From Gammaproteobacteria bacterium (GTDB taxonomy: Bacteria > Pseudomonadota > Gammaproteobacteria > Steroidobacterales > Steroidobacteraceae), in contig JAYVJR010000047.1 in the NCBI GenBank assembly GCA_043769085.1, positions 10,389 to 74,388 of the forward strand: a stretch of 64,000 bases of DNA. The letters run 5' to 3'. The notes beneath the pieces were generated by a model, which worked only from the letters and a program-made list of their open reading frames with translations, was not told where the DNA came from and made no database searches. This document shows positions 5,779 to 29,531 of this stretch, piece by piece. A program made the translations under genes and the position numbers. Each line of letters opens with the position of its first letter. Position 1 is the first letter of the stretch.

Positions 5779-5820
5779 AGGATTCTCCTGAGTAAAATTC
5801 TGAAACCGGCACACTCATTG

Positions 5821-5836: not shown

Positions 5837-5901
5837 AAATCTCGCCCCCTCCCTGTAGAGGATGGGCAGCATGCACTCCTATTGGGTATTATGGCTGCGC
5901 T

Positions 5902-6960: not shown

Positions 6961-6977
6961 GGCAGCTATAGACTCTG

Positions 6978-6993
6978 TTGCAAACGTATGCAA
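6978..6993. promoter_or_regulatory. LacI-family-type operator (copy 4), TTGCAAACGTATGCAA
   Basis: 49 bp upstream of the start at 7042. Confidence 0.7.
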
Positions 6994-7041
6994 GCATTGT
7001 CCTTTGTGGCGTTTTTTTGATTTCATGGAAAGAGACTATCT

Positions 7042-7821: not shown

Positions 7822-7845
7822 GAGCGTTAAGAACAAGCGGCATCG

Positions 7846-8199
7846 CTACATCGGCGCTGTCGCTTGTTCCACCTTGTCGCCGCCATAACGTGAATACAAG
7901 CGACCGTAGATTCGCTTGATCATCGCCTCACGCTCGATCTTGAGCAGCACTTCTGTTGCCGCTGCTGGCCGACCTTTTTCAAGCGCGGCACGCAGGTCCA
8001 CACCCTTGTCCGCCAATAACTCTTCCAGGTGCACTTGGCGATCGCGCAGCACCCAAATTTCCGCGCCCAATTCCAACACGATTCCGATCAGATGGTCCAC
8101 GACTTCATTGTCAAAATAGACCGGGTTGTTAGGTTGAAACCCAGGCAGATCGCGCACGTAGTCCAGCGAATCGGCGGGATTTTTTGCTTTCTCACTCAT
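7846..8199 (-). CDS. Hypothetical protein, 117 aa
   Basis: ATGA overlap with the upstream methyltransferase gene and coding-like composition. No motif recognised. Confidence 0.6.
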   Translation of the reverse strand: MSEKAKNPADSLDYVRDLPGFQPNNPVYFDNEVVDHLIGIVLELGAEIWVLRDRQVHLEELLADKGVDLRAALEKGRPAAATEVLLKIEREAMIKRIYGRLYSRYGGDKVEQATAPM

Positions 8200-9290
8200 G
8201 GCTTGACTCCGACACGGCCAGTTCGCAGCGCCGCACCCTGGTCCATGGGATTGTAGGCACGCATTACGAAGCCGGCAGCACTCATCAGGTCTTCGATATT
8301 TGATCGGATGAACCCTGGCAGGAATGGCTCGCCATTGTCCGCGGCATCCATCTCTGCAAAGAACATGCTGTACACATCGCGCCCACGGTCGCCGGAGAAA
8401 TCCAGCACGGTGAACGTGCCACCCGGCCTTAAAACGCGAAAAGCCTCGGCGATCACACGACGCGCGATCGGCACCGGCACTTCATGGAAAAACAACAGTG
8501 CAAAAACGACATCGAAATGCCCGTCGGGATAGCGCATGTCTTCGGCGAGCATCTGCTTGAAATGCACATCGATGTTCTGCTCGACAGCACGCAGATGCGC
8601 GTAGCGCACCATGGCGGCACTGACATCAATACCGTGCACTTCAGCGTCCGGATAGGCGCGCTTGAATGCTGTCGTGGTAGCCCCTGCGCTCGCGCCCAAA
8701 TCCAGCACGCGACTCACCCGCCCATCCTCAGGCTTGGCCGCAGCGCGCACCGACATCGTCGACACCATGTCGTTATCCGCAGCGCCGCCCAGGAATACCT
8801 TTAAGCCGAAGTCATACAGCAGACCTGCCAAGGGCTCGGCACTGTAGCCCCGAGGCTGCAAGTGAATTTGTGTCTGCGCATAGTCGGGAATCGGTGTTTT
8901 GGGATCGTATTCGACGCTGCCCGGGCCCTGCTTGTCGGCCTCGTCGAGCGCCGCCATCAGCTGCTCACGCCGTCCGCCGAAAGCGCTCTGCAGCCGGTTC
9001 CAGAATGCCTCTTGCAGACTGCGCTTGACTCGGTAATAGGTTTTGAGCGCGGGGTCGGCCATCAGCACATTGATGGACTGACGCGTCGCAGCCGGATCGG
9101 CAGTTTGCGGCACACCGGCTTTCAACATGATTTCGCGGCTGTACTGCCCAATGGGACGCTGCTGGGCATGCAACAGGAAATTGCGCGCGTCCGCAATGAA
9201 ATCCACGTAGGCCTCATCGCGACGAGTCGGCAGCGCCGGATAGGGCCCGGCCACTTTGCCGCGCGGATAAACCAGTTCAGTGATCGACAT
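8196..9290 (-). CDS. Class I SAM-dependent methyltransferase
   Basis: Motif I VLDLGASAGATT and the downstream DVVFALLFFHEVP. Start taken at MSITELV (ATG 9290). Confidence 0.85.
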   Translation of the reverse strand: MSITELVYPRGKVAGPYPALPTRRDEAYVDFIADARNFLLHAQQRPIGQYSREIMLKAGVPQTADPAATRQSINVLMADPALKTYYRVKRSLQEAFWNRLQSAFGGRREQLMAALDEADKQGPGSVEYDPKTPIPDYAQTQIHLQPRGYSAEPLAGLLYDFGLKVFLGGAADNDMVSTMSVRAAAKPEDGRVSRVLDLGASAGATTTAFKRAYPDAEVHGIDVSAAMVRYAHLRAVEQNIDVHFKQMLAEDMRYPDGHFDVVFALLFFHEVPVPIARRVIAEAFRVLRPGGTFTVLDFSGDRGRDVYSMFFAEMDAADNGEPFLPGFIRSNIEDLMSAAGFVMRAYNPMDQGAALRTGRVGVKP

Positions 9291-12650: not shown

Positions 12651-13244
12651 ATGCGTTATTTGTTAGTCGCCGTGATTGCTGTCATCTCGCTGTCATTCGC
12701 AACCGATGCGCTGGCGGATCCACCACCGTGGGCACCGGCCCATGGCTATCGTGACAAGGGCAAGAACAAAGGCAAGCGTCATCGAGAAGCTTATTACGTC
12801 GGCTATTCGGGTCACGAATACGATCGTGACTACGACATCGTTCGCAGCAACCGCTGCAATCGCGAGAAAGTAGGCGCGGTAATCGGGGGCGTTGTGGGCG
12901 GTGTGATTGGTTACGAGGTCGGCAGCCGAGACAACCGCGTCGTTGCGACAATTCTAGGCGCGGCTGCAGGCGCGTTGATAGGCGCCAAGATTGGGCGGGA
13001 CATGGACGATCGCGACCGGGCCTGCTGGGGCCACGCGCTTGAGCTTGGCACCACGGGCAGACGCGTAACGTGGATCAACGAAGACAACGGCGTACGTTAC
13101 GACATCACACCGGGTCATGGTGCGCGCCGCGGCGACCGTATTTGCCGCGACTACACGCTGGTGGAGTGGCGCGATCGCAACAGTGTCCGATCCTCCGGCA
13201 CGGCCTGTCAGATTCGTTCGGGCGAGTGGCAATTGGATCGCTAG
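12651..13244 (+). CDS. Glycine-zipper / 17-kDa-surface-antigen-like outer-membrane protein
   Basis: AGGAG RBS, then ATG 12651. Signal peptide MRYLLVAVIAVISLSFATDALA. Glycine zipper GAVIGGVVGGVIGYEVG...GAAAGALIGAKIG. Confidence 0.75.
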   Translation: MRYLLVAVIAVISLSFATDALADPPPWAPAHGYRDKGKNKGKRHREAYYVGYSGHEYDRDYDIVRSNRCNREKVGAVIGGVVGGVIGYEVGSRDNRVVATILGAAAGALIGAKIGRDMDDRDRACWGHALELGTTGRRVTWINEDNGVRYDITPGHGARRGDRICRDYTLVEWRDRNSVRSSGTACQIRSGEWQLDR

Positions 13245-13688
13245 CCGCAACCGAGATTTACCAGGCTATTTGCCGCGCTGGCTTATAGTTTCAAGAAACC
13301 AGCGACCAAACGTTGTCTACGCGTAACGCTGTTGGTGCTGGCTATTCCGTCCACAACTGTCCACAGGGCACGAGACTTACTTCGGTTTTCCTCAGAGCCA
13401 GCCGCGTCCAGGGACACGACGTGCTGCACCAGGTTGCCACCTACATCTGAAGCATTTTCGATTTCCAGGACGACTCCTGTGCTGACATCGTCTGCACCGA
13501 GGAAATCATCAATGAAAATATCATTGCAGGGCTCACCAACTTGAGCGCCGTCTTTGACGGCGTGCCCTTCAATGACTGGGCGTCGCATCCGGTATGGGCG
13601 GACACCTACTGCGGATTGCAACCCGCGATGCAGGGTGGCTACTGTCTGATGCTGGAGCTGTTGTGCCTCGGCCTGGCGGCAGTTTTTG

Positions 13689-14468
13689 TTAGAACACCAA
13701 GCCGCGTATGTCCCGAATCAGACGAATGGCGCTGAGAATAATGACCAACAACCCAACTGCGATCATCAGCGGCTTGCGCGGCAGGTCACGTGTGATCCGC
13801 GCCGCAATCGGCGTGGCTAACAAAGCGCCGGCGACCAGAGCCAAAGTGGCCAACGACAACTGCTCAAATCCCAGGTGCCGCACCAGAATGGCAAACACGG
13901 CGCAGGCGACAAAGGTTTCCGCGATGCTGCCCGTGCCGACGACATAACGAGGATTTGCTCCGGCCGCAACCAGATTGCTGGTCACCAAGGGCCCCCAGAC
14001 GCCGGACATTGCCTCCAAAAAACCACCAATCAGCCCCACGGTTCCAATCTTGGCGTGAGGCACGGTTGGCGGTGGTGTGCCGCGGGCCCGCAAAATGATA
14101 ATCACTCCGATCACGATCAGGTAGGCGCTAACAAAGGCGCCCAACATGGGTCCTGCATGCCGCGTCAGCACAACCGATCCCAATGCACCACCCAGCACGC
14201 CGCTCCCACCTAACACAGCCAGCATTCGCCAATCGACATTGCGCAGGGCGATGTGGCCAATACTGGAGGCGGCTCCAGTAAGAATCTTGGCGCCGTTGAC
14301 GGAGGCACTGGCAATTTCGCGTGGCAATCCGATGGCTGCCAGCACCGTCGAGCTTATAGCACCGAAACCCATGCCAATCGCTCCATCGAAAAGCTGCGCG
14401 ACGAATCCGATCGCCAGGAAAACCCAGGTCTGTGGTTGTTGCAGCAAGGTTAGTAAAGTTTCGATCAT
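13689..14468 (-). CDS. TauE/SafE family sulfite exporter
   Basis: 259-aa polytopic membrane protein with a duplicated Gly-rich TM pattern. Divergent from cysJ. Confidence 0.88.
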   Translation of the reverse strand: MIETLLTLLQQPQTWVFLAIGFVAQLFDGAIGMGFGAISSTVLAAIGLPREIASASVNGAKILTGAASSIGHIALRNVDWRMLAVLGGSGVLGGALGSVVLTRHAGPMLGAFVSAYLIVIGVIIILRARGTPPPTVPHAKIGTVGLIGGFLEAMSGVWGPLVTSNLVAAGANPRYVVGTGSIAETFVACAVFAILVRHLGFEQLSLATLALVAGALLATPIAARITRDLPRKPLMIAVGLLVIILSAIRLIRDIRGLVF

Positions 14469-14575
14469 AGGGCGCTAGGCTCGCATCTACTGGCCGTGCT
14501 TCTCATACGTTTTTGGTATCTGCTGATGCCATTTTTAGACCTTTTTCATATATACACCCTGCGCATAATGGTCGC

Positions 14576-16393
14576 ATGAACGCGCCCCCGGCTGCCTTGC
14601 TGCCGCCACCCCCGCTTGACCCGCAGTTGGCAAACAGCCTGCTCGCACTCAGCAGCCATGTCGATGCCGAAACGATTCGCTATATGTCAGGGTTCCTCGC
14701 GGGTGTGGCGGCGGAACGCCAACGGGCGGCAGGCACTGACAACAGCGACACAAAACCAGTATCTGACGCCTCCAGCATCACCCGCGCAACTATTCTCTAC
14801 GCGAGCCAGACCGGCAATGGTCGACGCGTCGCTGAAAAGCTACATCGCCAACTTGAGTCACATGGCCTGGCGGCACGCTTGATCAATGTGGCGGATTTCA
14901 AGCCTCGCGACATTGCCAACGAGAAGCTCCTGTACCTTGTTGTTAGCACCCATGGCGACGGCGATCCACCCGATGATGCACGTGCTTTCGTCGACTATTT
15001 GACAAGTCGCAAAGCACCGCGCCTCGAACAATTGAGCTATACCGTTTTGGCGTTAGGCGATTCGAGTTATCCCAAGTACTGCGCGACGGGACGGACGCTC
15101 TCCGAACGGCTCGCGGCCTTAGGTGCTAAACAGCTGACTGAGCGCGCCGATTGCGACGTCGACTATCAGACTGCTGCGGAAACCTGGTCGAACCACGCGC
15201 TGGAAATCGCGCGCGACCGACTGCAAAGCCCGCATATCGCAATGGTGTCAGCGCCACCGTCGCAACATGCAGCTGCGGACCGTGATGCGCCAGTCACCAC
15301 CGAGGTACTGGCACGCGTGCTTATAACGGCCCGCAGTTCAGATCACCCGGTTACGCATCTCGAGCTCGCCGCCCCTGCCGGGCTGCGAACCTACGAACCC
15401 GGCGACGCGGTCGGCATCTGGCATCGCAATCCCGCCCAAGTTGTCGACCGCCTGGTTGAAATTGTCGGCGCTGACCCCGGCAGTCCAATCGAGATCGACA
15501 GCAAAGAACGTTCTTTGCGCGACTGGCTCACCGACCATCGAGAAATCACCCGCCTCTCCCGTCCGTTTCTCGATGCCCACACCAAGAGAACTAACAACAG
15601 CGCATTGCATCAGCTGCGAGCGACCGAAACGCCGGACACATTGCGGACCTTGCTGCGCGACTGGCAGCCCCTGGACTTGCTGGAACGTTTTCCAGCACCC
15701 TGGTCGGCCGAGGACCTGGTGCGGGCTCTGCGCCCACTGACACCACGTTTGTATTCCATTGCATCCAGCCGCGCCAGCGTAGGCAATGAGCTGCACCTGA
15801 CGGTGGCGGCGGTCGACTACCGCCGCGATGGCCACCAACGTCTTGGCGCGGCGTCCCATTTCCTGGCCACACGGGGCAGCACCGAGACTGTTTCACTACG
15901 CGCCTATGTCGAGCCGAATCCCCGTTTTCGCCTTCCAGCCGACGACACGCGCGACATCATCATGATCGGGCCTGGCACAGGCGTCGCACCGTTTCGTGCT
16001 TTCTTGCAACACCGCGTTGAGAGTGGTGCACGCGGCCGTCACTGGCTGTTCTTTGGTGCGCGGCACCGATTCAGCGATTTTCTTTACCAGACTGAATGGC
16101 TCGAGGCGCGTCGCAACGGGACGCTGCATCGGCTCGATGTCGCATTCTCGCGTGATCAGTCTGCGAAAGTGTATGTGCAGCACCGCATTCGTGAACAAGG
16201 CGCCGAACTCGCACGCTGGCTCGAAAACGGCGCGCACATTTATGTCTGTGGCGACTCTCAGCGTATGGCTCCGGATGTCCACAATGCACTGCTGGATGTG
16301 CTGACACAGCACACAGGTCGTTCAGGGGACGCTGCTAACGAATTTCTTAATGAACTGTCGAGTCAACGACGATATGCACGCGACGTCTACTAG
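14576..16393 (+). CDS. cysJ: Assimilatory sulfite reductase (NADPH) flavoprotein alpha subunit
   Basis: Flavodoxin motif [10 protein letters not shown], then FAD/NADPH blocks ([25 protein letters not shown]), ending ...RYARDVY. N-terminus parallels E. coli CysJ. Confidence 0.92.
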
Positions 16394-16398
16394 GCCGA

Positions 16399-18072
16399 AT
16401 GAACACTAACAACAGCAAGGCTCCGCCCAGTGCGATCGAAAAGGTGAAAGCGGACAGTCGGTTCCTGCGTGGCAGTATTGTCAAAAGCCTACTGGACCCG
16501 ACCACTGGTGGACTCGCAGAGGCTGATGGCCATTTGATCAAACTGCACGGCAGCTACCAGCAGGATGACCGCGACATCCGCGAAGAACGCCGTTTACAGA
16601 AATTGGAACCGGCCTACAGCTTCATGATACGCACGCGCCTGCCGGGTGGCGTATGCACGCCGCAGCAGTGGTTGGCACTGGACGAGCTCGCGACCCGCTT
16701 TGCCAACGGCAGCCTGCGGCTCACTACGCGACAGGCCTTTCAGTTGCACGGTGTCATCAAGCACGACTTAAAACCGACCATTGCCGCGATGAATGCAGTG
16801 CTGATCGACACGATTGCAGCCTGCGGTGATGTCAATCGCAATGTGTTAGCCAGCGCGAATCCTCTGGCCTCACAAATGCATGCGATTGTCCACGACTGGG
16901 CTGTCAGACTCTCGGAACACCTGCTACCGCGCACACGCGCGTATCACGAAATCTGGCTGGATGGGGCGACGGTGGCAGGCGGCGAGCAGGAACCGATTTA
17001 CGGACCCACCTATCTGCCGCGCAAGTTCAAAGCCGCATTTGTGGTCCCGCCGATCAACGACGTAGACGTATTCGCTCAGGATCTTGGGTTCATTGCGATA
17101 GCGGCTAGCGATAGCAGCGCTGCTCTTGACGGTTTCAACGTCACGGCGGGCGGCGGACTGGGTGCTACCCATGGCGATTCGGCGACCTACCCTCGTCTGG
17201 CGGATACGCTGGGCTTCATCACGCAAGATCAACTGTTAGCTGTAGCGGAAGCTATCGTCACGACGCAACGCGACTTTGGCGATCGCAGCAATCGCAAACA
17301 CGCGCGACTGAAGTACACCATCGAGACCCTGGGGCTTGGCGCGTTTCGCACTGAGATCGAAACCCGCGCAGACATTAAATTTCAGCCGGCGCGGCCAGTC
17401 AGCTTCACAAGCAATGGCGATCGCTTCGGTTGGACGCAAAGTATTGATGGCAGCTGGGCTGTGACGCTTCGCATTCCCTCCGGCCGCATTGCTGATCTCA
17501 CCGACGCACCCTGGCGATCGGGGCTGCGCGCGATCGCATCGGTCCATACTGGCACGTTCCGTCTGACGCCTAACCAGAACCTGATCGTAGCGGGCATCTC
17601 CGCAGGTGCACGGCCCGTCATTGAATCGCTGATCCAGCGGCATGCTCTTTCTTTGCATGAGACTGCATCACCTGTACGCCTCGACGCCCTGGCTTGCGTG
17701 GCCCTGCCTACCTGCCCGCTCGCAATGGCCGAAGCCGAGCGTTACCTGCCGGCACTGGTCGGCGAAATCGAAATACGACTTCACAAGCATGGCCTCGACG
17801 GCCTGCCGTTAGGCCTGCGTATTACAGGCTGCCCGAATGGATGCGCCCGTCCCTACCTCGCCGAGATTGCTCTGGTAGGCAAGGCGCCAGGTCGCTACAA
17901 CCTGCATCTAGGCGGTGACGCAGCCGGTCAGAGACTCAACAAACTGTATCGTGAGAATCTGGACGAGGCGGCCATCTTTGCGGCTCTCGAGCCATTATTC
18001 GCGCGTTTTGCGACTGAGAAACAGCCTCAGGAAAGATTTGGAGATTTCTTATGGCGATCGCAGCTCATCTGA
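16399..18072 (+). CDS. cysI: Sulfite reductase hemoprotein beta subunit
   Basis: SNYLRG-type N-terminus (DSRFLRGSI). Siroheme/4Fe-4S cysteine cluster ([14 protein letters not shown]...[11 protein letters not shown]). Confidence 0.95.
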
Positions 18073-18785
18073 TACCGGCTGCCGGCCGCGGCGAAAAATC
18101 GGCCCTGTTGGCTATCGATGTCGCTATGGCAGATCACAGCGCTGAGCAGCGTGTCGAATTCGCATTGCAGAACTTGCCCGGTGCACACGTGCTGTCGTCA
18201 AGCTTTGGTGTGCAGGCCGCGGTGTCGCTGCACCTGGTCACGCGACTGGCGCCGAAAATCCCTGTCATTTTGGTTGACACCGGCTACCTGTTCCCCGAGA
18301 CCTATCAGTTTATCGACACCCTGTCCGAACGCCTCGGACTCAATCTTCAGGTAGTCAGACCGGCGGTGTCACCCACTTGGCTTGAAGCCCGGCACGGTAA
18401 ACTCTGGGAGCAGGGTATCGAAGGCCTCGAGCTCTATGCGCAAATCGCCAAAGCAGAACCGATACAACGCGCACTTCGAGAGCAAAATGCAGCAACCTGG
18501 ATCTCGGGTTTGCGCCGCTCCCAATCTAACAGCCGGTCCGCCATTCCATTCATTGATCTGGTGGACGGACGCTTCAAAGTTCAACCAATTGCTGACTGGT
18601 CTGATCGCGATGTCGGACGCTATCTCAAACAGCACCGTCTTCCCTACCACCCGTTGTGGGACAAAGGTTACGTGTCGATTGGCGACTGGCACACGACACG
18701 CTCGCTGCTGGAAGCCGGCAGTATTGAAGGTACGCGCTTTTTCGGGCTCAAGCGCGAGTGCGGTCTGCATGGCCTCGTCGGTTAG
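18051..18785 (+). CDS. cysH: Phosphoadenosine phosphosulfate reductase
   Basis: Collinear with E. coli CysH ([39 protein letters not shown]). The start could instead be ATG 18126. Confidence 0.92.
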
Positions 18786-18808
18786 CACACAGTCATAGAG
18801 AATTAATT

Positions 18809-20209
18809 GTGGACAGACTGCCACTCTTTCTCGACCTCCGAGATGTATGCGTCCTAATCGTTGGCGGCGGGCCCATTGCGGCGCGCAAATATCGCTTATT
18901 GCGCAGCGCAGGTGCTGCCGTAACCATGGTCGCGCCGCGACTGACAGACGTTAGCCTGCAGATCGCCGTTGGCCATGGCCAATTGCAGCATGTAGCCGCT
19001 TCCTTTCTTCCGGATCACCTAACGAACGCGAGGCTGGTGATAGCGGCTACAGGCTTGCATACGGTCAACGCAAATGTGGCCGCAGCGGCCAGAGCGCGCG
19101 GCATCTGGGTGAATGTCGTCGACGATGCAGAGCTGTCGAGCGCCATCGTACCCAGCATCGTCGACCGATCACCGGTAATCGTGGCGATCTCCACCGGCGG
19201 GGCTTCACCGGTGTTAGCAAGGAGACTGCGGGCCCGTTTGGAGGCCGCACTGGAGCCATCACTGGGGACGCTCGCGAGTCTACTAGCAACCTGGCGTCAG
19301 CGGTTGCGAGCACGCTGGCCACAGCCCGATGAGCGGCGCAAAGCTATCGATCAACTCCTGGATGGCGAATTGCCGCGGCATGTGGCCAAGGGTCAGCACG
19401 AGTTGGCCGAGAGCGTTTTGCGGAACGCGCTGGTTGCTGCGGCATCGGTTGCTCGTCCAACACTGGGGCATGTAACGCTGGTCGGCGCGGGTCCCGGCGA
19501 CCCAGGACTCCTGACACTTAAGGCTTTGCAGGCGCTGCAACGCGCTGACGTGATTCTGCACGACCGTTTGGTCCCGCCGGCCATCCTCGCACTGGCGCGA
19601 CGCGATGCCGACCTGATCGATGTTGGCAAGATGGGCGGCGGTCCCAGCACCTCACAGAGCCACATCCATGATCTTTTGTTAGCCAACGCGACAGCAGGAC
19701 GTTACGTCGTAAGACTCAAAGGTGGCGATTCTTTTATTTTTGGCCGGGGCAGTGAAGAAATGGCCATCCTGCGCGAGGCTGGCATCGAAGTTGACGCTAT
19801 CCCTGGAATAACGGCTGCTCTGGCGCTGAGCCTGGCAGGAATTCCACTCACGAGTCGTGGCGGCGCCGCCGGAGTACGCCTCCTGACCGCGCAACGCGCC
19901 GCGCTCTCGCCAGCACCAGATTGGCAGTCGTGGGCGGCGTCCGAGGAAACGCTCGTCATCTATATGGCCACTGCCTCTTTGCCCCTGATTCGCGAACGAC
20001 TGCTGCACTTCGGCATGCGCCCCACCATGCCAGTGGCTGTGGTTGAAAATCTATCGCTACCTGGACAACGAGTTATTGGCGGCACGTTAAATACATTGGC
20101 TGACATCGTACAGACCGGGCGTATCGGCTCGCCGAGCATTCTGGTCATTGGCGAGGTCGCTGCTAACGCCAAACTGACAGCCACTGGCGCAACGGACATT
20201 GCCGCATGA
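18809..20209 (+). CDS. cysG: Siroheme synthase (uroporphyrinogen-III methyltransferase / dehydrogenase / ferrochelatase)
   Basis: GTG start gives (M)DRLPLFLDLRDVCVLIVGGGPIAARK, matching the E. coli CysG N-terminus. C-terminal SUMT block VTLVGAGPGDPGLLTLKA. Confidence 0.9.
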   Translation: MDRLPLFLDLRDVCVLIVGGGPIAARKYRLLRSAGAAVTMVAPRLTDVSLQIAVGHGQLQHVAASFLPDHLTNARLVIAATGLHTVNANVAAAARARGIWVNVVDDAELSSAIVPSIVDRSPVIVAISTGGASPVLARRLRARLEAALEPSLGTLASLLATWRQRLRARWPQPDERRKAIDQLLDGELPRHVAKGQHELAESVLRNALVAAASVARPTLGHVTLVGAGPGDPGLLTLKALQALQRADVILHDRLVPPAILALARRDADLIDVGKMGGGPSTSQSHIHDLLLANATAGRYVVRLKGGDSFIFGRGSEEMAILREAGIEVDAIPGITAALALSLAGIPLTSRGGAAGVRLLTAQRAALSPAPDWQSWAASEETLVIYMATASLPLIRERLLHFGMRPTMPVAVVENLSLPGQRVIGGTLNTLADIVQTGRIGSPSILVIGEVAANAKLTATGATDIAA

Positions 20210-21738
20210 GCCGTGTGCTGCGACTGGGTTCACGGCGCAGTGCGCTGGCGCGGGTGCAGGCGCATCAGGTAGGCGCTGAAATTCAACGCCTGGATCCCGC
20301 TGTCAGGCTCGAATACCGCTTTATTGAAGCGAGTGGTGATCGGAGCACTGAACCTAACGCAGGGCTCATCACGGCACGGGGCGGGTTCAGCGAAGACCTG
20401 GGCGTCATGCTGGAACAGGGAGAGATCGATCTCGCGGTCCATTCTTGGAAAGACCTGCCGTATCGAGAACGCGATCGCACGGTTGTCATTGCCACTCTGC
20501 CGCGCGCTGATGCACGCGATGTCCTGTTAGTAAGGCGTGGCTCGCTTTTGTCTGCGAGCCACGTAGGCTTAAAGATACTGAGCTCTTCCGCACGACGGCG
20601 TCACCATCTGGAGGAATTTCTGAACTGGGCACTGCCTGTAAAGCCGGCCAGTATTTCTTTCTCAGCGGTGCGTGGTGACATCGAAACGCGGCTCCGTAAA
20701 CTGTTGCGCGGCGATGGTGACGCCCTGGTGATCGCAAAAGCCGCACTTGATCGACTCATCGAGACACCGGCACTTGCGATTGCGGATACCGCGTTGGATT
20801 CACAGAACCTCCTGCTCACGACTCAGTCCATCGTCAGGCAGGCCATGAGCGAGTGCCGCGCCATGGTATTGCCGCTGCTCTATTGCCCCGCAGCACCAGC
20901 ACAGGGTGCGTTAGCCATTGAAGCCCCTGTTAGTACACAACATCTGGATTTGTGGCGCGAGCTCAACCACCCAGACACGTTCGACTTGGTCGACACGGAG
21001 AGATCCATTGCGCGTCGTTACGGGGACGACGAACCCCTGGGACTGACGCGCTTACGATTCGACTTCGGTGATGTGGAGTTTATGCGCGGCAGCTGGACTG
21101 ACCAACCAGCACAACGCGCCAAGCTGTACCGCTTCGGCACTACGCTGCCTCGCCCGCTGGATCCAGGCGCAGTCTGGTGCGGCGAACCACCGGAATCCGC
21201 GACTCGCACGCGACTCTCGACCGTTAGCACAAACACGCACTTTGGTGCCGATACCGGCCTACTCATTGCCAGAGCCGAGGCGCTGTCGGACGACAGCATT
21301 GTGGATGAACGGGCCATTGTCTGGACGCCGGGTCTGACGACCTGGCGCAAACTGGCCGAGCGCGGAATCTGGGTCACGGGCAGCGATGAGTCGCTGGGCG
21401 AAACCGGCGCGAGCGCCATCCGCGCCTGGTACCCCCGCACATTCCGTTGGTTAAAGCTTACCCATGAAAACGGATTCTTGACGGACCACGCACAGCTGCT
21501 GCCAACCTATCGCAGCTTGCGGCGCCATCCGATCGCGGACGTCAGTCGTTACTCGCATTTTTTCTGGCAAAGCGGCACGCAATTGCGCGAGTACCTGCGA
21601 GCATTTCCGTCATTAGCAAGCGCCTGGCATGGCTGCGGGCCCGGCAACACCTACCGTATCGCACGTGACTTGTTAGGATCTGAGCACGTCCGGCCGTTTC
21701 TGAGTGCCGAGCAGTTCCGCGCAGAATTACGCACATGA
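20206..21738 (+). CDS. Hydroxymethylbilane synthase-like protein with about 200-aa C-terminal extension (possible HemD-like domain)
   Basis: The N-terminal 300 aa align with HemC (LRLGSRRSALARVQA, DLAVHSWKDLP, RGDIETRLRKL). 510 aa against about 310 for HemC. ATGA overlaps at both ends. Confidence 0.65.
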   Translation: MSRVLRLGSRRSALARVQAHQVGAEIQRLDPAVRLEYRFIEASGDRSTEPNAGLITARGGFSEDLGVMLEQGEIDLAVHSWKDLPYRERDRTVVIATLPRADARDVLLVRRGSLLSASHVGLKILSSSARRRHHLEEFLNWALPVKPASISFSAVRGDIETRLRKLLRGDGDALVIAKAALDRLIETPALAIADTALDSQNLLLTTQSIVRQAMSECRAMVLPLLYCPAAPAQGALAIEAPVSTQHLDLWRELNHPDTFDLVDTERSIARRYGDDEPLGLTRLRFDFGDVEFMRGSWTDQPAQRAKLYRFGTTLPRPLDPGAVWCGEPPESATRTRLSTVSTNTHFGADTGLLIARAEALSDDSIVDERAIVWTPGLTTWRKLAERGIWVTGSDESLGETGASAIRAWYPRTFRWLKLTHENGFLTDHAQLLPTYRSLRRHPIADVSRYSHFFWQSGTQLREYLRAFPSLASAWHGCGPGNTYRIARDLLGSEHVRPFLSAEQFRAELRT

Positions 21739-22691
21739 AACGCTTGCAACGGCTACGTCGTACCACGGCGTTACGCGACCTGGTGGCGGAGACCGGATTC
21801 GGTGCCGCACAGTTGATACAGCCGTTGTTTCTAAACGCCACCGCCGACCCACCTAGCGCTATCCCGGGACTGTTAGACAATCAGACACACAATGAAACCT
21901 CAATACTGCAGCAGGTGGACGCGGACCTGGCCGCAGGTGTGCGGCACTTTCTCCTGTTCCCCGTTCCCGCCACCAAGGCGACGAAAACGTTTAGTGCCGA
22001 ATTCGCCGTCAACAGCATTGCTCGAATACGCGAACGATGTGGTGATAGTGCCAGTCTGTGGGTCGACACCTGCCTCTGCAGTTTCACGGACACGGGGCAT
22101 TGCTGTGTATTCGATGGCGCCGGCAGACAGGATCTGGCGGCAACTCTGCGCGAACTGGGCGATTTGGCGCTCACCTATGCCAACGCAGGCGCCGATGGCG
22201 TCAGCCCGAGTGACATGAATGACGGTCGCGTTGCCTGGCTTCGCGAGGTGCTGGATGCTCAGGGACATGAACTCATGCCCATCATGAGTTACAGCAGCAA
22301 ATTTGCCAGCCATTTCTACGGTCCCTTTCGGGCTGCCGCCCAGTCGAGCCCGCAGTATGGCAATCGACGCTCCTACCAGCTGGACGTTCGCTCTCGCCGC
22401 GATGCATTGGCCGCGAGCCAGCGCTGCGCCGACGAAGGCGCGGACTTGCTGATGGTCAAACCTGGCATGAGCTCCATCGACCTGTTAGCGCCCATCGCGA
22501 CAGCAACACAAAAGCCTGTGGGCGCTTATCAGGTCAGCGGCGAGTACGCCGCACTCACGTTGCTCGCTCGCGAAGGTCTGGGGGATTTTGATGCGATGCT
22601 GCTGGAATCCTGGCAGGTTTTCCGCCGCGCAGGCGCGAGTTACATCATCAGCTATGGCGCACGACACGCACGCCGCCTGGGATTTCCCTGA
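21735..22691 (+). CDS. hemB: Porphobilinogen synthase (ALA dehydratase)
   Basis: DTCLCSFTDTGHCC metal site, SYSSKFASHFYGPFR, LMVKPG and YQVSGEY blocks. Confidence 0.92.
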   Translation: MKRLQRLRRTTALRDLVAETGFGAAQLIQPLFLNATADPPSAIPGLLDNQTHNETSILQQVDADLAAGVRHFLLFPVPATKATKTFSAEFAVNSIARIRERCGDSASLWVDTCLCSFTDTGHCCVFDGAGRQDLAATLRELGDLALTYANAGADGVSPSDMNDGRVAWLREVLDAQGHELMPIMSYSSKFASHFYGPFRAAAQSSPQYGNRRSYQLDVRSRRDALAASQRCADEGADLLMVKPGMSSIDLLAPIATATQKPVGAYQVSGEYAALTLLAREGLGDFDAMLLESWQVFRRAGASYIISYGARHARRLGFP

Positions 22692-22692
22692 C

Positions 22693-23910
22693 ATGTTCGA
22701 CTACGATGGATTTTTCGACGACCAGTTACAGCAGTTGCACCGCGAGCAGCGATACCGGCGCTTTCGCATCCTGAAACGAGGTGACCGTCAATTTCCACAT
22801 GCGCTGTATCTGGGACCGGGCCGCGCCCCTCAGGACGTTGTCGTGTGGTGCAGCAATGACTATCTCGGTATGAGTCAGAGCCCGGTTCTGAACGATGCCG
22901 CTCGAGCAGCACTGAGCCGCTATGGAACAGGGGCTGGCGGCACCCGCAATATTTCCGGTAGCCACGATCTGATCGTCGAGCTCGAGTCCGAACTGGCGCA
23001 CCTGCACCGAAAATCGGCAGCGCTGGTTTTTTCCTCCGGCTATGTGGCCAACGACACTACGCTGGCCACACTGGGTCGCGCGCTACCAGGCTGCGTTTTC
23101 TATTCAGATGCCAACAACCACGCGTCAATGATCGAAGGCATACGCCGCAGCGGCGCCCGCTGCGAAGTTTTCACCCACAACGATTCGGACTCGCTGCAAC
23201 GTCTGTTAGCACGCGGCGACCCGACGAAGCCAAAAATTGTTGCATTCGAATCACTCTATTCCATGGATGGCGATATCGCACCAATCGCAGCCCTGGTTGC
23301 AGTGGCACGCCTGCACGGCGCGATGACCTATGTCGACGAAACACACGCCGTGGGGGTGCATGGTCCCGAGGGTGCTGGCCTGGTTGCAAAAGCAGGACTC
23401 CTGAGCCAGGTCGACATACTGCAAGGCGGCTTGGGCAAAGCCTATGGCGGAGTCGGCGGATTCATAACTGGGAACGCTGTGACCGTCGACTTCCTGCGCA
23501 GCGATGCACCCGGATTTATTTTTACAACTGCACTGCCACCGGCCGTAGTCGCAGCCGCTCTCGCCAGCGTTCGTCACCTCAGGCACAGCGATCGGGAACG
23601 TATACGCCTGTTCACTCTGACTGCCGAACTAAAGACCGCTCTCACTGGTGCCGGACTCCCGCTGCTCGACAACCCGTCGCAGATCTTGCCACTCATCATC
23701 GGCGACGCCGCGCTCTGCGAAAAACTGGCCGAGCGGTTGATAGACCGGCATGGCATCTACCTACAGCCTATTAATTATCCGACGGTTGCCAAGGGGTCCG
23801 AGCGTTTCCGCATCACGCCCACCGCCCTGCACACTGATCGGATGGCAGAACAGTTGCTGTCGGCCCTCGCGAGTGAAGTCCAGCGACGGCACGACGTCCG
23901 CGCTGCTTAG
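22693..23910 (+). CDS. hemA: 5-aminolevulinate synthase (PLP-dependent)
   Basis: Collinear with Rhodobacter-type ALAS: VVWCSNDYLGM, GTRNISG, NHASMIEGIRRSG, ESLYSMDGD, LGKAYG (PLP Lys), YLQPINYPTV. Confidence 0.9.
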   Translation: MFDYDGFFDDQLQQLHREQRYRRFRILKRGDRQFPHALYLGPGRAPQDVVVWCSNDYLGMSQSPVLNDAARAALSRYGTGAGGTRNISGSHDLIVELESELAHLHRKSAALVFSSGYVANDTTLATLGRALPGCVFYSDANNHASMIEGIRRSGARCEVFTHNDSDSLQRLLARGDPTKPKIVAFESLYSMDGDIAPIAALVAVARLHGAMTYVDETHAVGVHGPEGAGLVAKAGLLSQVDILQGGLGKAYGGVGGFITGNAVTVDFLRSDAPGFIFTTALPPAVVAAALASVRHLRHSDRERIRLFTLTAELKTALTGAGLPLLDNPSQILPLIIGDAALCEKLAERLIDRHGIYLQPINYPTVAKGSERFRITPTALHTDRMAEQLLSALASEVQRRHDVRAA

Positions 23911-24180
23911 CGGACTCCATGCGGCCGGTATATCGGCGGGCAACAGATCGTTCGCCTGCAAGAAGCGCGATTTTCCACGAGGTTTTTCGTTGAGCCCGAG
24001 CCCTCTCCCTGGCACCCGCTGTTGATAGCCGGTCAACACGCTCTGGCAACTTCGACCTAACAACGCGCTGGCGGATTGCAGACCTCCATGACTACTTCCT
24101 ATGCCGCAAGAAACACAGAACATAACGTCCCTTGATCGTAACGTTAGGTTCCTTAGTTAGTGCTACTCGCCCGACTCTCG

Positions 24181-26523
24181 CTATCGAACCACCGGTGCCG
24201 GATCAGGAATCAAGGCAACGACTTTGCCGAATTCCTGCCAGCCATTGCCGATGTCGACAGGTCCCTCACCGAACACTATTGTCGGATTGGTTGCTTGGCC
24301 TAAGTGAAAGTACACCGCAGCATTGAACCCTCTTTGCCCGGCAGCACCTAACGCGTCGCGAATCTTGAAAGCACCTGGTCCTGTGGACGTGTACCCGAGC
24401 GCACCCAAGTCCGCCTTGCCGTAAAGGCCGGTCGCGATATCAAATCCGAGCCAATAGAAAATATCGGCGTCGTCGGTGCGAGTTTCGGCCACCAGTGTAT
24501 CCGCCGCCGCAACCGCGGCTCCGCGTGCCGCCAGATCCATGTTGCGGTTTCGCTCCAATGAAAACGCCACCGCAAACTCATATCCTGACCGTTGCTCCGG
24601 TGCTAACGAGTCATGGATGCGCTGTTTGCCAGGCCCAGGCGCCGTTTGACCCTCTGCGGCAGCTAAGCCAATGTCAAATCCGTCTCGACTAGCAGCCGTC
24701 GATTGCCGGTTACGCAATGCCGTAAATAGCGGATCCGCAGCGGCGATCGAGGGTCCTTTAGCAGCGAGTGTGGCTAACGTCTGAGCGTCAATCGGCACAA
24801 AACTCGCCAGGAACACGCGGCAACGATCCTCAAGACTCGGCGCCGCTGGGCTGTTTCGAGCACGCGCGTTTCGTGCGACATCGCAAATTGACTGCATTGC
24901 CTCCGCGGGACTGGGCGGCGGTTTCGGACCATTCATTACCACCCGCCCGATGCCTCTCGGCGCAGAACTGTTGCCGTCTCTAAACCAGTATAATTTTCCG
25001 TTAGGCACAATGCCTAGAATCACACCGTCACTGTTCGGAACGATTTTGGCGAACGAGTTCCAACCCGAACCGACAAAACGAGGTTCTTGCCATTTGAATT
25101 CGCCCGTGGCGTAACCGTCGTGGCGATAGAACAATAAACTGCCATCTCGGCGAACCGCATAGATGGCGCCCAGACCGGTCGAGAAAACCTCTCTGAAACT
25201 ACCCCAACCGGATCCCACAACCTTGGCAGGTTGCCAACTGCGCATGCCGTGATCTGCGCCGTTATTTCTATACCAGACCAACTTACCGTCATTGGTGATG
25301 CCGTAGACGATGCCCTGGCCGCCCGAAAAGATACGCGAAAATGACCAACCGCTACCCACCTCTACGGGCGCAGTCCAAGCACTGCTGCCGTCGTTAAAAC
25401 CATCATGTCGATACCAGACCAGCTTCCCTTCAGCTGTTAGGGCATAGAGTGTGTTGCCACCCGCGGCAATAATGTCTCGAAAGCTGCCCCATCCGTTACC
25501 CACTTTTCTGGGGCCTTGCCACGCCGTCGAATTGGACTCTTTGCGATACCAGAGCAAATCGCCATTCGGACGAACCGCGTAAATCCAAAGTGGCTGATAG
25601 TTCGGCGGAGTCTGAGCAAATGTGCCAATGAACTGCGAGGGAGGCACGAAAGCACCCAGATAACGATTGATTTCATCCCGCAACGGGGCGACTGGCGCGT
25701 CCGCAAATTGCGTAGTAGATGCAGCCCACGTCCATGAGTCTGACTGAGGACACTCCTTGCCTGGCAAACAAGGACTGAAGGACCTGGCGTGAACACCGAA
25801 AAAAATGTCGCCCGCCACTGTCTTGATCAGAGACGCGCCGCCGCTGTCGCCACCCGCGATGGTCGGACCGCTGGCGGTGGGAAACCATACCAAATGATCG
25901 CCGCCCCGACCGGTCTCCCGGCTTGTATTGAAATTGGCTTCGCGGTAGAGATCGTCGCCGGACGTAGGCATTGCTGTCGCCCCGGCGCCTTGCGCAAACT
26001 GATTGATGCCGCGCCCGTAAGAGGTGACAGACAAAGGCACCATGGTGTTACCACCATAGAGATCCACGTTGTACCCGCCTTCGCGCCCGTTGAAGGGCTC
26101 TGGAACGCGAACAATGGCCATATCCATCGGTCGAAACGAAATGACACGCACTGACTTGCGTACCTGCACACTGGTGGTCCATGTCGCTGTTAGGGTGACA
26201 CTGTCTTCGGCAGTATTAATGAACTGCCCGGGTTTATCCGGGTCTGGGCTATCAATACAGTGAGCCGCAGTGATCACCCAGTTGTTTCGCAGCAGCGTGC
26301 CACTGCAGGAACTTCCGGGTATGCTGACCTTGACTAACCCATATTTCTCTTGATCCGCAGGACTGACCAAGTTTCCCGCCACGAGAGCCTGCGATGTGGA
26401 CCCGGTACGACCTTCCGGGCTTACCTGCGCCTGGCTCAGAGCGCCGAACACCAATGTGGTTGTCGCTATGACGCCGAAAGTCCGCCCGCCAAGTCGCAGC
26501 CGTTTGTTCAAGACCATGTTCAT
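24181..26523 (-). CDS. Secreted S1 (trypsin-like) serine protease fused to a tachylectin-like beta-propeller and an unassigned C-terminal domain
   Basis: Signal peptide. S1 triad (TAAHC, DMAIVRV, GDSGG). Four or five repeats of ...GKLVWYR..G....W.....VGSGW..F. The C-terminal 200 aa are shared with 41928-43922. Confidence 0.85.
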   Translation of the reverse strand: MNMVLNKRLRLGGRTFGVIATTTLVFGALSQAQVSPEGRTGSTSQALVAGNLVSPADQEKYGLVKVSIPGSSCSGTLLRNNWVITAAHCIDSPDPDKPGQFINTAEDSVTLTATWTTSVQVRKSVRVISFRPMDMAIVRVPEPFNGREGGYNVDLYGGNTMVPLSVTSYGRGINQFAQGAGATAMPTSGDDLYREANFNTSRETGRGGDHLVWFPTASGPTIAGGDSGGASLIKTVAGDIFFGVHARSFSPCLPGKECPQSDSWTWAASTTQFADAPVAPLRDEINRYLGAFVPPSQFIGTFAQTPPNYQPLWIYAVRPNGDLLWYRKESNSTAWQGPRKVGNGWGSFRDIIAAGGNTLYALTAEGKLVWYRHDGFNDGSSAWTAPVEVGSGWSFSRIFSGGQGIVYGITNDGKLVWYRNNGADHGMRSWQPAKVVGSGWGSFREVFSTGLGAIYAVRRDGSLLFYRHDGYATGEFKWQEPRFVGSGWNSFAKIVPNSDGVILGIVPNGKLYWFRDGNSSAPRGIGRVVMNGPKPPPSPAEAMQSICDVARNARARNSPAAPSLEDRCRVFLASFVPIDAQTLATLAAKGPSIAAADPLFTALRNRQSTAASRDGFDIGLAAAEGQTAPGPGKQRIHDSLAPEQRSGYEFAVAFSLERNRNMDLAARGAAVAAADTLVAETRTDDADIFYWLGFDIATGLYGKADLGALGYTSTGPGAFKIRDALGAAGQRGFNAAVYFHLGQATNPTIVFGEGPVDIGNGWQEFGKVVALIPDPAPVVR

Positions 26524-26690: not shown

Positions 26691-29531
26691 TCACGGTGCC
26701 GACTCCAATAATGGCAACGCGGCCAACGATTCCGGTGCCTCAAACTGCGGTGTCTGTGGCCCGATACTTCGATCCCGCAAGCGTTCCACCGTGCTGGCCG
26801 CGGCCTCAAACCACTCGCGCACGTTGACGCGGCCGTCCCGATTGCGATCATTGGCCGGCTGCAGGCCTTGCAGCAAGCCGAGCGTAAATAGCCCGTGCCT
26901 GCTGCGCGCATATTCCTGGGACTCCTCGTCGCCGCGCGACGCTAACATGAACCCGATCCGCGATGAGGCGGAGCGTTTCACCAGCGAACGGGGATCAAAA
27001 CGACCTACGACGTTACGTGCCTGGCAGGTATCAACGATCAAAAATCGTCGGCCTGCCGTTTGTCGCAACCGCTCGAAAATTACTGCCCAACCGAGCAGCG
27101 ACGCAGAATCATCCACAACCTTCCCTGCTAACACGGCATCCACGTCCACACTGCGGGCATCGCGCGGTACAAAATAGTAGTTGCCTGCGTCGTCACTGAT
27201 GCCATGTGATGCTAGAAAGACCATCACCGTATCATTGCCACGCACATCGGCGAGGCGTGCAAGTATGCTGCGGATCGCGGCCTGCGTCGGTAGCGTCCCA
27301 AGATCCGACAGTGTCTGCACATGAACCTGGCGAAATCGCCTCGCGCCCCAGCGACGCAGCATCGCGGCCACCTCCTCCGCATCACGAGCTGCGTAGGACA
27401 GCGCCACGCCCGGATCCAACTGGGTAAAATGATTGACGCCCACCGCAAACACGTACAAGTCTCCGGGTTCAATATTGTCGGCTGCAGCAGCAGGCTCGGT
27501 GATCAGTCGCTCCACCAGTCCGAGTGACCGCCCGTTGGAGATCTCGACGCGTATCGTCCGATCGCTGCGCCCTAACGGCAACGGCAATTCGCGCACCAGA
27601 GTCTGCTGATCGCGGCCCGACAATGCGCGCTCCACCGTTCGCGTTTGCGGGATGTCATTGATGTAGACGGTCATGGCCAGCATTGGCAGGCCGCTACTAC
27701 TCGCCGTGAGCAACAGCTTGGCATTGCCACTTGCCACTAGAGTAAGTCGTGGCGGAAGCGGCAGTGTTGCTAACAACCCCGGTAGAGATCGTGACTTAGC
27801 AGCGGCAGAATCCGCTCGCAAGGCGCGCGTGACATCAGCCGGTTGATAAAGATCGTTTTCAAATTGAACCGCGCGGAAATAGTCCGGCCAGGTGTCGAAT
27901 CCATGCGCCCACTGCCAGCCGACGAGTTCATCGCCCAAGGGCGATGACGCATAGCGTCCGGATGGTGTCCAGGCCACCCATTGAGTTAGGCGTCTGCTAA
28001 CAAACAGTGACAGCACTTCCGCACCTGACGAGGCTGCGAACCAACGCACGGTTCCATCCGCCAGTAACGCCACCACCCAGCGACCGTCCGCACTCACGTT
28101 AACCTGCCGGACCGTGGTGCTGGTACGCACCGCCCAGCGTTTTTGGCCCTCGACGGACAGCGCATGCAGCGCCCATTCCGTGCCTGCCACAACCTGCCGG
28201 CCTGCCACATCGATGGCATACGAGTGCACACGCTCCAGTGGTTCCAGCGCTAGCGCACGACCATTGACGCTGAGCGACTCAGCCGAGAATGTCACCGTCA
28301 AATTGGACTGACGTGTCACGGCAGCGCGCAGCGCTGGCTCTTGAGCGCTCTGCGTTGTAAGCAGCAAATGGGCCACATCAAATCTCCATCCTGAGTTGTT
28401 GCCCGGTCGGCGCACGCCGACACCTGTTCCGTCCGCCGTCAAACGCAGTTCCGTGCGGGCATCGAAGTTGTCGACAGCGCCCTCCAGACGCCATCGCGGC
28501 TGCCCGTCATCGGACAGAATGGCTAACACGCCTTGTTCGGATCCGAGCAGCAGTTGCTGCGCCGAGATACTGACCAAGGCGCCAATCCGGCCGGTGGCCG
28601 TAACTAGCGACGGCAATGACCGGCCATCCGCCATGCGCCAGCGAGCAATTACGCTCTCTGAGCCGACGCTCGATTCGCCGGTGGCAAAAAAGGTACGACC
28701 GTCGCCAGACCATGCAACACGGGTCAGCTGGCGAAACCGATCCACCGCAGGCGGGATCAGCTGCCGTTGAACCGCCAGCGTATCGGCTCGCAATATGGTC
28801 ACGCGCGGTGCATCATTGAATCCGATCGCAACCTCCGCGCCGCTGGGTGAAATTGAGAGACCGAATGGCTCGCGACCTGCCAGTCCTGCGACGCTACGCC
28901 CTAACAGCGTGAAATCCGCACCATAGAGACGCACAAACCCGTCCAACGACGCTGTCAGCAACTGTCCTTGCGGCGTGAAATCCAGTTCCAGCAATTTGTC
29001 GCGATAGTCCCGGTCGCTGAATACTAGTCGCCGGTCCTGCAGACGAAACACGCGCAACCCTTCACGGCCCATCAGCCCAACGGCGAGGAAACGGCCATCG
29101 GGCGAGAATTTCAGACTGGCAACGACTTCTTCCAGATCCGGCAGCCGCCCTAACAGCGCGCCGGTCGCGCGATCAACCAGGTAAATGCAGGCGCGATGCT
29201 CGATGTCCCAGCATGTCCAACCGCCGGTCGCAAGCGTGTGCCCGTCCGGGGACAATGCCAATGCATACAGCTGCCCTTGGGCACCGGCCCTCGCCGGTAC
29301 TCTCAGAGTGTCAAGCAAGCGGCCATCGCTCAGCCGCCAACGGCGCAGCGTCTTGTCTTCCGACGCTGACCAAAACTCGCCGTGTGCAGGGTCGGCAACC
29401 AGCGCATGAACAAACGCCGCGTGTCGACCCGCTTCAATTTGTAACAAAGGATCGGACGCCGCCAGCGCCAGCCTCGCCAACAGGCAAAAGAACACCAGCC
29501 AGCAGCGCGACGCGCACACTGCAACGCTCAC
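26691..29531 (-). CDS. Signal-peptide WD40 beta-propeller protein with C-terminal caspase-like (peptidase C14) domain
   Basis: WD40-like repeats (SASEDKTLRRWRL, LALSPDGHTLATGG, LKFSPDGRFLAVG...). The C14 dyad context is VMVFLASHG and FLIVDTCQA. Its GTG start overlaps the TpsB stop (GTGA). Confidence 0.88.
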   Translation of the reverse strand: MSVAVCASRCWLVFFCLLARLALAASDPLLQIEAGRHAAFVHALVADPAHGEFWSASEDKTLRRWRLSDGRLLDTLRVPARAGAQGQLYALALSPDGHTLATGGWTCWDIEHRACIYLVDRATGALLGRLPDLEEVVASLKFSPDGRFLAVGLMGREGLRVFRLQDRRLVFSDRDYRDKLLELDFTPQGQLLTASLDGFVRLYGADFTLLGRSVAGLAGREPFGLSISPSGAEVAIGFNDAPRVTILRADTLAVQRQLIPPAVDRFRQLTRVAWSGDGRTFFATGESSVGSESVIARWRMADGRSLPSLVTATGRIGALVSISAQQLLLGSEQGVLAILSDDGQPRWRLEGAVDNFDARTELRLTADGTGVGVRRPGNNSGWRFDVAHLLLTTQSAQEPALRAAVTRQSNLTVTFSAESLSVNGRALALEPLERVHSYAIDVAGRQVVAGTEWALHALSVEGQKRWAVRTSTTVRQVNVSADGRWVVALLADGTVRWFAASSGAEVLSLFVSRRLTQWVAWTPSGRYASSPLGDELVGWQWAHGFDTWPDYFRAVQFENDLYQPADVTRALRADSAAAKSRSLPGLLATLPLPPRLTLVASGNAKLLLTASSSGLPMLAMTVYINDIPQTRTVERALSGRDQQTLVRELPLPLGRSDRTIRVEISNGRSLGLVERLITEPAAAADNIEPGDLYVFAVGVNHFTQLDPGVALSYAARDAEEVAAMLRRWGARRFRQVHVQTLSDLGTLPTQAAIRSILARLADVRGNDTVMVFLASHGISDDAGNYYFVPRDARSVDVDAVLAGKVVDDSASLLGWAVIFERLRQTAGRRFLIVDTCQARNVVGRFDPRSLVKRSASSRIGFMLASRGDEESQEYARSRHGLFTLGLLQGLQPANDRNRDGRVNVREWFEAAASTVERLRDRSIGPQTPQFEAPESLAALPLLESAP

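Follow-up and report, generated by a model that had tools for sequence, protein, structure and literature searches.

Why would a gammaproteobacterium carry a gene for 5-aminolevulinate synthase (ALAS) at the end of a cluster of sulfate assimilation genes, and which tetrapyrrole would the enzyme serve? We analyzed a stretch of 64,000 nucleotides (here called the window; positions 10,389 to 74,388 of contig JAYVJR010000047.1, assembly GCA_043769085.1) from an uncultured member of the Steroidobacteraceae. Seven plus-strand open reading frames (ORFs) at positions 14576-23910, all of them intact, encode CysJ, CysI, CysH, CysG, a predicted HemC-HemD fusion, HemB, and ALAS, and are packed so closely that independent promoters would have no room. 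Taken together, the gene identities, their packing, the failure to find other tetrapyrrole genes in the genome, the co-distribution of the genes among related genomes, and their conserved linkage make it quite probable that assimilatory sulfite reduction and a private line from glycine to siroheme are joined in one transcription unit, and that this line would serve a single enzyme in a heme-auxotrophic lineage.

The terminal gene encodes an ALA synthase

The last ORF scored 547.6 bits against the ALAS model TIGR01821 (cut-off, 338.55 bits) and remained under the cut-offs of the sister families, with 334 bits against 426 for bioF, 285 against 460 for kbl, and at most 243 against at least 500 for the serine palmitoyltransferase models. 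Its five best distinct sequences in the PDB are all ALAS (7X98 with 439 bits, human ALAS2 with 405, Rhodobacter capsulatus 2BWN with 394, and two yeast sequences with 354), and the best match outside this family, an 8-amino-7-oxononanoate synthase/KBL enzyme, reached 215 bits. The protein is approximately 55 to 57% identical to alphaproteobacterial sequences. Its nearest public relatives come from metagenome-assembled genomes (MAGs) with 86 to 89% ALAS identity, and more distant homologs, of the ALAS as well as of the fusion protein, carry the NCBI name Steroidobacteraceae.

We calculated a quick maximum-likelihood tree from 53 rows, with branch support from the Shimodaira-Hasegawa-like approximate likelihood ratio test (SH-aLRT) only; it takes in three long-branch rows, namely, the two paralogs of the genome itself and L013. 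The window ALAS fell within a 32-row clade with 99% SH-aLRT support. This clade includes all rows that are labeled Gammaproteobacteria or Steroidobacteraceae, and it adjoins the alphaproteobacterial ALAS. The two KBL/BioF-like paralogs of the host are distant outgroups, separated from the ALAS rows by branches with 99% support. Because the sister-family models fall short and the tree groups the protein with ALAS, the last ORF is, as judged from its sequence, a genuine ALAS with the predicted activity of condensing glycine and succinyl-CoA to 5-aminolevulinate (ALA). An identity as KBL or BioF is ruled out by the cut-offs, the PDB matches, and the tree.

Among the other genes of the host genome (G000), a KBL/BioF-like paralog on contig C82 (positions 20223-21386, minus strand) gave 298.9 bits with the ALAS model, which is below the cut-off, and contains one in-frame TGA.

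No other tetrapyrrole pathway was found in the host genome

The host genome is a MAG of 3.92 Mb in 156 contigs, is 95.85% complete, and was searched as a whole. No GluTR (best score, 22 bits), no HemL over the cut-off, no HemE, and no HEM4 domain were found in it. The single hemB match is the operon copy, which is the only ALAD gene, and the only PF01379 gene is likewise that of the operon. An AhbAB-type siroheme decarboxylase domain was not found in the genome either, which removes the route from siroheme to heme as far as this marker goes. Only two TP_methylase genes are present, cysG and a 302-amino-acid (aa) ORF, indicating that there is no corrin methyltransferase set and no corrin pathway. 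A PF01077 search for NIR_SIR enzymes returned the CysI of the operon only. As no second set of genes was found, the operon provides the one tetrapyrrole route identified in this genome, and CysI is its only identifiable client. The genome also contains heme-copper oxidase genes (546 and 198 bits), and cysD together with a bifunctional cysNC is located on contig C48, away from the operon, which makes sulfate assimilation by the host complete.

An earlier reading of the sequence alone had placed this tetrapyrrole branch beside a housekeeping heme pathway, independent of it. That part did not stand, as no housekeeping pathway was found: the searches of the host genome gave no GluTR, no HemL over the cut-off, no HemE, and no separate copies of hemB, hemC, or hemD, and GluTR and HemE were not found in the 24 other genomes sampled from the genus either.

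With these 24 genomes and that of the host, the genus sample comprised 25 genomes, several of which are 99 to 100% complete. ALAS (over the cut-off), hemB, and CysI co-occurred in an identical set of six genomes (G000, G001, G002, G009, G015, and G020), which are among the larger ones of the genus (3.1 to 4.9 Mb). GluTR and HemE were each found in 0 of the 25 genomes and COX1 in all 25. The hemB gene was absent from 19 of the 24 sampled relatives, and COX1 was kept in these; the heme of these 19 relatives must therefore come from outside.

At the level of the family, 150 genomes from 40 genera were sampled; ALAS was present in three genera, all of which belong to the twelve genera without GluTR. 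From the remaining families of the order, 16 genomes were sampled; GluTR was found in 12 of these and HemE in 13. These tallies take in two unpublished genomes, one in the order sample (G040) and one in the family sample (G156); both are GluTR positive, and the conclusions are unchanged without them. Outside the family but within the order, three genomes (G026, G035, and G039) have neither GluTR nor HemE and have hemB at a lower score (333 to 366 bits), like the operon type. CysI is present in G035 and G039, and G035 has an ALAS-like gene with 311.6 bits, just under the cut-off. The siroheme-only arrangement may thus extend beyond the Steroidobacteraceae.

Identity and layout of the operon genes

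The features of the locus are listed in Table 1. CysJ and CysI both pass the equivalog cut-offs for the NADPH sulfite reductase CysJI, CysJ with 677.8 bits (cut-off, 668.15) and the domains Flavodoxin_1, FAD_binding_1, and NAD_binding_1, and CysI with 813.9 bits (cut-off, 756.55). CysH is of the 3'-phosphoadenosine 5'-phosphosulfate (PAPS) reductase type (274.9 bits; cut-off, 154); assignment as an adenosine 5'-phosphosulfate reductase was rejected, as TIGR02055 scored 121, far under its cut-off of 235. CysG reached 513.1 bits (cut-off, 400) and has the Pfam domains NAD_binding_7, Sirohm_synth_M, CysG_dimeriser, and TP_methylase in this order, so that the dehydrogenase/chelatase half and the uroporphyrinogen III methyltransferase half are both present. 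Read from GTG 18809, its N terminus is, as we take it, similar to that of E. coli CysG. HemB matched PF00490 with 311.9 bits and NF006762 with 303.6 bits (cut-off, 297), and its translation contains what we take to be a Cys-rich, zinc-type metal motif and the contexts of both active-site lysines.

Table 1. Features of the sulfate assimilation and siroheme locus (window coordinates)
Feature	Position	Strand	Basis or remark
TauE/SafE-family membrane protein (sulfite-exporter family)	13689..14468	-	PF01925, 90.6 bits; divergent from cysJ
Divergent intergenic region, 107 nt	14469..14575	.	Presumed promoter region (putative function)
cysJ, NADPH-sulfite reductase flavoprotein	14576..16393	+	TIGR01931
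cysI, sulfite reductase hemoprotein (siroheme and 4Fe-4S)	16399..18072	+	TIGR02041
cysH, PAPS reductase	18051..18785	+	NF002537
cysG, trifunctional siroheme synthase	18809..20209	+	NF007922; likely start GTG 18809
HemC-HemD fusion, 510 aa	20206..21738	+	PF01379 and predicted folds
hemB, porphobilinogen synthase, zinc type	21735..22691	+	PF00490, NF006762
5-Aminolevulinate synthase (Shemin/C4 route), 405 aa	22693..23910	+	TIGR01821; start ATG 22693

The junctions were read from the sequence. A 5-nucleotide (nt) gap separates cysJ from cysI, and cysI overlaps cysH by 22 nt, provided that cysH starts at ATG 18051. The gap between cysH and cysG is 23 nt with the GTG start, cysG and the fusion gene as well as the fusion gene and hemB overlap by ATGA, and the ALAS gene follows hemB after 1 nt. 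Cotranscription of the seven genes as one unit is predicted from their common strand, from gaps of no more than 23 nt, from the two ATGA overlaps, and from the tight junctions that are kept in two relatives (L017 and L019, described below). The ORF calls, the curated profiles, and these junctions agree with the sequence-only reading, which had listed seven packed ORFs with the same boundaries and gene names; the gene identities support its suggestion that the cluster could make siroheme from glycine and succinyl-CoA, and its choice of ALAS over KBL or BioF for the last ORF stands as well. The HemC/HemD-like fusion that it had seen in the fifth ORF was borne out at the level of the fold by Foldseek and VIA-align, as follows.

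The HemC-HemD fusion lacks the canonical cofactor cysteine

Residues 5-241 of the fifth ORF matched PF01379 (Porphobil_deam) with 137 bits (Pfam cut-off, 22.1). For residues 201-510 (window positions 20806-21735), which contain the whole HemD-like part, Pfam gave no match at an E value of 0.1, and the fusion gene was not matched by HEM4 (PF02602) in the whole-genome search. Only structure prediction revealed the uroporphyrinogen III synthase (UROS) fold. An AlphaFold2 model built on 69 homologs had a predicted local distance difference test score (pLDDT) of 92.2 and a predicted template modeling score of 0.92. In this model, residues 1 to approximately 310 match the three-domain hydroxymethylbilane synthases 1AH5, 1PDA, and 4HTG (Foldseek E values of approximately 1e-19 over 293 to 303 columns). 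The C-terminal part was also modeled alone (residues 300-510; pLDDT, 91.5), and with this model, the Foldseek matches ranked 1 to 12 are all UROS. VIA-align, which is independent of Foldseek, gave Z scores of 12.0 for 4ES6, 10.4 for 3D8N, and 9.7 for 3P9Z with 176 to 184 of 211 residues aligned, compared to a Z score of 6.2 for the best unrelated chain. The two-lobed HemD-like fold covers the whole C-terminal domain (residues approximately 320-510). Because a HemC fold is followed by a UROS fold, the fifth ORF is, at the level of the predicted fold, a HemC-HemD fusion in which HemD is compact and divergent in sequence. When the C-terminal half was used as the query of an exhaustive search, 489 clusters (50% identity) were obtained, almost without exception in proteins of approximately 500 aa.

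We additionally examined the active-site residues of the HemC half in an alignment with HemC of E. coli MG1655 (alignment A3). Arg11, Lys83, Asp84, Arg131, Arg132, Arg149, Arg155, Arg176, and Gln198 (E. coli numbering) are all invariant. The dipyrromethane cofactor of hydroxymethylbilane synthase is carried by the cysteine of the GGC motif, Cys242 (PMC7242693). This motif is absent from the window fusion, which reads G-D-D-E-P-L-G, with an Asp or Glu in place of the cysteine. Among 214 full-length members of the fusion family, which are not phylogenetically independent, 90 keep GGGC and 124 are without the cofactor cysteine; a Cys at window position 217 is present in 122 of the 124 members without the canonical cysteine compared to 44 of the 90 members with it.

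We infer from the alignment that the HemC half has another anchor for its primer or follows a different mode of action. We give about even chances to the proposal that it builds the tetrapyrrole chain without an anchor of the Cys242 type, be it with the cofactor on another residue, for which the clade-invariant Cys217 is a candidate, or with no covalent primer and a direct hand-over of the bilane to the fused HemD. If so, the cysteine-less HemC would represent a second way of catalyzing a step that is regarded as mechanistically uniform across life. The fusion offers a direct experimental handle on how hydroxymethylbilane synthase needs its covalent cofactor.

The linkage is conserved in relatives

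A close relative (L011) has the identical seven-gene order behind the same TauE gene. In L017, with 69% ALAS identity, the order is cysNC-cysD-TauE and then, divergently, cysJ-cysI-cysH-cysG-hemCD-hemB-ALAS. In L019, a more distant contig of the Steroidobacteraceae type with 63% ALAS identity, TauE is followed by cysJ-cysI-cysH-hemCD-hemB-ALAS-cysG, indicating that the linkage survives the relocation of cysG; the junctions remain tight. The same cluster, with fragmented gene calls, is present in a Steroidobacteraceae MAG (L029; GCA_046347165.1, contig JAXMGU010000007.1) at positions of approximately 4940-8570. In this cluster, the expected cysG site (approximately 4940-6470) is without a called gene, and the hemC-like gene and hemB, which are flanked by intact cysJIH and ALAS, are called only as fragments (190 aa and 170 aa, respectively); this fragmentation reflects either assembly frameshifts or decay of the module. 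A divergent TauE-family neighbor precedes cysJ in L011, L017, L019, and L029. In L030, hemB-ALAS adjoin cysH and sat-cysC, and the contig end cuts the cluster off. Over these six contexts (the window, L011, L017, L019, L029, and L030), ALAS is located beside hemB and sulfate assimilation genes in all six and the fusion is present in five, L030 being the one that is cut off. Just outside the 32-row clade, the ALAS gene of L031 has a canonical hemC and hemE as neighbors.

A gene for a SOUL-family (heme-binding) protein is located at positions 16045-16677 (minus strand) of L017, approximately 5 kb downstream of the operon.

Proposed function and alternatives

In the proposed scheme, ALAS would form ALA from glycine and succinyl-CoA, and HemB would convert ALA to porphobilinogen. 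Four porphobilinogens would be polymerized to hydroxymethylbilane by the HemC half of the fusion, and the HemD half would close the ring to uroporphyrinogen III; having both in one chain would reduce the spontaneous ring closure that yields the I isomer, which is of no use. CysG would then methylate and oxidize uroporphyrinogen III and insert iron, and the resulting siroheme would be loaded into CysI, which together with CysJ would reduce the sulfite supplied by CysH. In a host lineage without a heme pathway, the heme of the oxidases would come from outside, presumably by scavenging, and the whole tetrapyrrole branch, with its five activities, would exist for one enzyme, CysI, and travel with it as a unit. 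A single unit would also tie the supply of the cofactor to the demand of the enzyme. It would further allow the trait to be transferred or lost as a whole, in line with the all-or-none pattern in the genus.

Several points weigh against this scheme. The genome is a MAG of 156 contigs, so that gene absences are not proof, and the co-distribution was counted in related genomes, so that these counts are not independent. Scans for promoters and terminators gave no more than the shuffle expectation; they carry no information on transcript boundaries and speak neither for nor against a single transcript. A 486-aa ORF on contig C32 (L008, positions 1294-2754, minus strand) gave a marginal ferrochelatase match, with 28.6 bits for PF00762, just over the Pfam cut-off. 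This ORF matches profile positions 84-275 and is the sole trace of a late heme enzyme in the host genome; it could be another kind of chelatase or a means of using scavenged porphyrin. A search of the host genome with the TonB-hemin receptor model yielded 64 TonB-type matches, none of them over the cut-off (best score, 198 against 317); that is, no clear heme receptor was found there. In addition, the fusion is below the hemC equivalog cut-off (141.5 bits against 164 for TIGR00212), and because the cofactor cysteine is missing, the activity of the HemC half is not assured.

The limits of the assembly (95.85% complete), the ferrochelatase-like ORF, and the lack of a clear receptor would all suit an operon that is a general tetrapyrrole pathway, from which uroporphyrinogen III or siroheme is also led to heme by enzymes that were not assembled or are unrecognizable, in a host that is no heme auxotroph. 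However, this would have to hold against the absence of HemE and GluTR from every genome of the genus sample, including those that are 99 to 100% complete, against the 19 relatives whose heme must be external since they keep COX1 without hemB, and against the lack of an AhbAB domain in the host genome, and we consider it unlikely. A different doubt concerns the fusion itself. If it does not function as a hydroxymethylbilane synthase, the cluster would make porphobilinogen or another product, or would be a decaying remnant, as might be suspected from the Asp or Glu in place of the GGC cysteine, from the scores (below the TIGR00212 cut-off, and with the C-terminal half missed by HEM4), and from the fragmented hemC and hemB calls in L029. 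In the window, however, the ORFs are all intact and overlapping, and the nine substrate-binding or catalytic residues of HemC are invariant. The cysteine-less form has been kept in 124 of the 214 full-length family members, the linkage of ALAS with hemB and sulfate assimilation genes holds in all six contexts (with the fusion in five), and the genome searches gave no further HemC or HemD that could feed CysG and CysI. A nonfunctional fusion thus appears quite improbable to us. It is also conceivable that ALAS makes ALA for a use outside tetrapyrroles, with the cys neighbors being incidental: in some actinomycete natural products, C5N units derive from ALA, and ALAS-like enzymes outside the Alphaproteobacteria have been linked to secondary metabolism. 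However, the ALAS gene begins 1 nt after hemB and is tied to hemB and sulfate assimilation genes in every context examined, and no secondary-metabolite genes flank it, which makes this use hardly credible. We accordingly retain the siroheme line dedicated to CysI as the preferred explanation.

Comparison with known systems

The placement of siroheme genes inside the operon of a siroheme enzyme is already known. The nirB-nirD-nirC-cysG operon of E. coli and Salmonella (layout verified in MG1655) likewise contains a siroheme-making gene together with a siroheme-dependent reductase. However, it has only the last enzyme, CysG, and its uroporphyrinogen III comes from the housekeeping C5 heme pathway, whereas the operon in the window contains all steps from glycine onward, and no housekeeping pathway was found. 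The cysH operon of Bacillus subtilis combines sulfate assimilation genes with the siroheme-branch genes sumT-sirB-sirC (ylnDEF). It begins at uroporphyrinogen III, without the steps for ALA, porphobilinogen, or uroporphyrinogen, and its host makes heme. What differs here is the whole path from glycine, with a gammaproteobacterial ALAS as its first enzyme, a host in which no heme pathway was found, and a HemC without the cofactor cysteine.

The ALAS belongs to the same enzyme family as the alphaproteobacterial and mitochondrial enzymes (7X98, 2BWN, and human ALAS2; 394 to 439 bits). In contrast to these, it has a gammaproteobacterial host and is located in a sulfur assimilation operon instead of a heme or bacteriochlorophyll context. 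A 2026 review states that ALAS occurs only in the Alphaproteobacteria and that all other bacteria are without it (PMC13564367), and a 2020 review places it in "some alpha-proteobacteria" (PMC7242693). Against these reviews, an ALAS tied to sulfite reduction outside the Alphaproteobacteria is indeed unusual, as the sequence-only reading had remarked, and our literature search found no published description of ALAS in sulfite reductase operons or in the Steroidobacteraceae. An enzyme said to be confined to the Alphaproteobacteria among bacteria forms a well-supported gammaproteobacterial clade, where it would be used for siroheme rather than heme.

The fusion has the same folds as HemC (1PDA and 1AH5 from E. 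coli) and HemD (4ES6 from Pseudomonas aeruginosa and 3D8N from Thermus thermophilus) and keeps the substrate-binding residues. However, it differs from them in being one chain, in a UROS part of approximately 190 residues compared to approximately 250, unseen by Pfam HEM4, and in the Asp or Glu at the equivalent of Cys242.

Heme auxotrophy has been described for aquatic bacteria that are likewise free-living and respiring and are without heme biosynthesis (bioRxiv 10.1101/2021.01.11.426183). The acI genomes lack the common steps from ALA to uroporphyrinogen altogether (bioRxiv 10.1101/2021.01.11.426183), whereas the lineage in the window keeps these steps, apparently for siroheme only. Tetrapyrrole synthesis is usually treated as a heme pathway with side branches; here, the trunk would be kept for the siroheme branch only, so that genome-based calls of a partly present heme pathway can mislead. 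The presence of the operon would also predict which members of the genus are able to live on sulfate instead of reduced sulfur.

Flanking sequences

A 7-bp hairpin followed by TTTTT is located at positions 14514-14531 (plus strand), inside the 107-nt intergenic region and 45 nt upstream of the cysJ start; it comes from a scan that as a whole did not exceed its shuffles. An Rfam scan of window positions 13000-25000 gave no match at an E value of 0.1. Downstream of the operon and convergent to it, there are two large genes on the minus strand. The product of the first (positions 24181-26523; 780 aa) combines a trypsin-like protease domain with tachylectin/tectonin repeats, and that of the second (positions 26691-29531; 946 aa) has WD40 beta-propellers and, at its C terminus, a caspase (Peptidase_C14) domain. 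Neither of the two genes follows the operon in L011, a close relative in which the downstream synteny differs.

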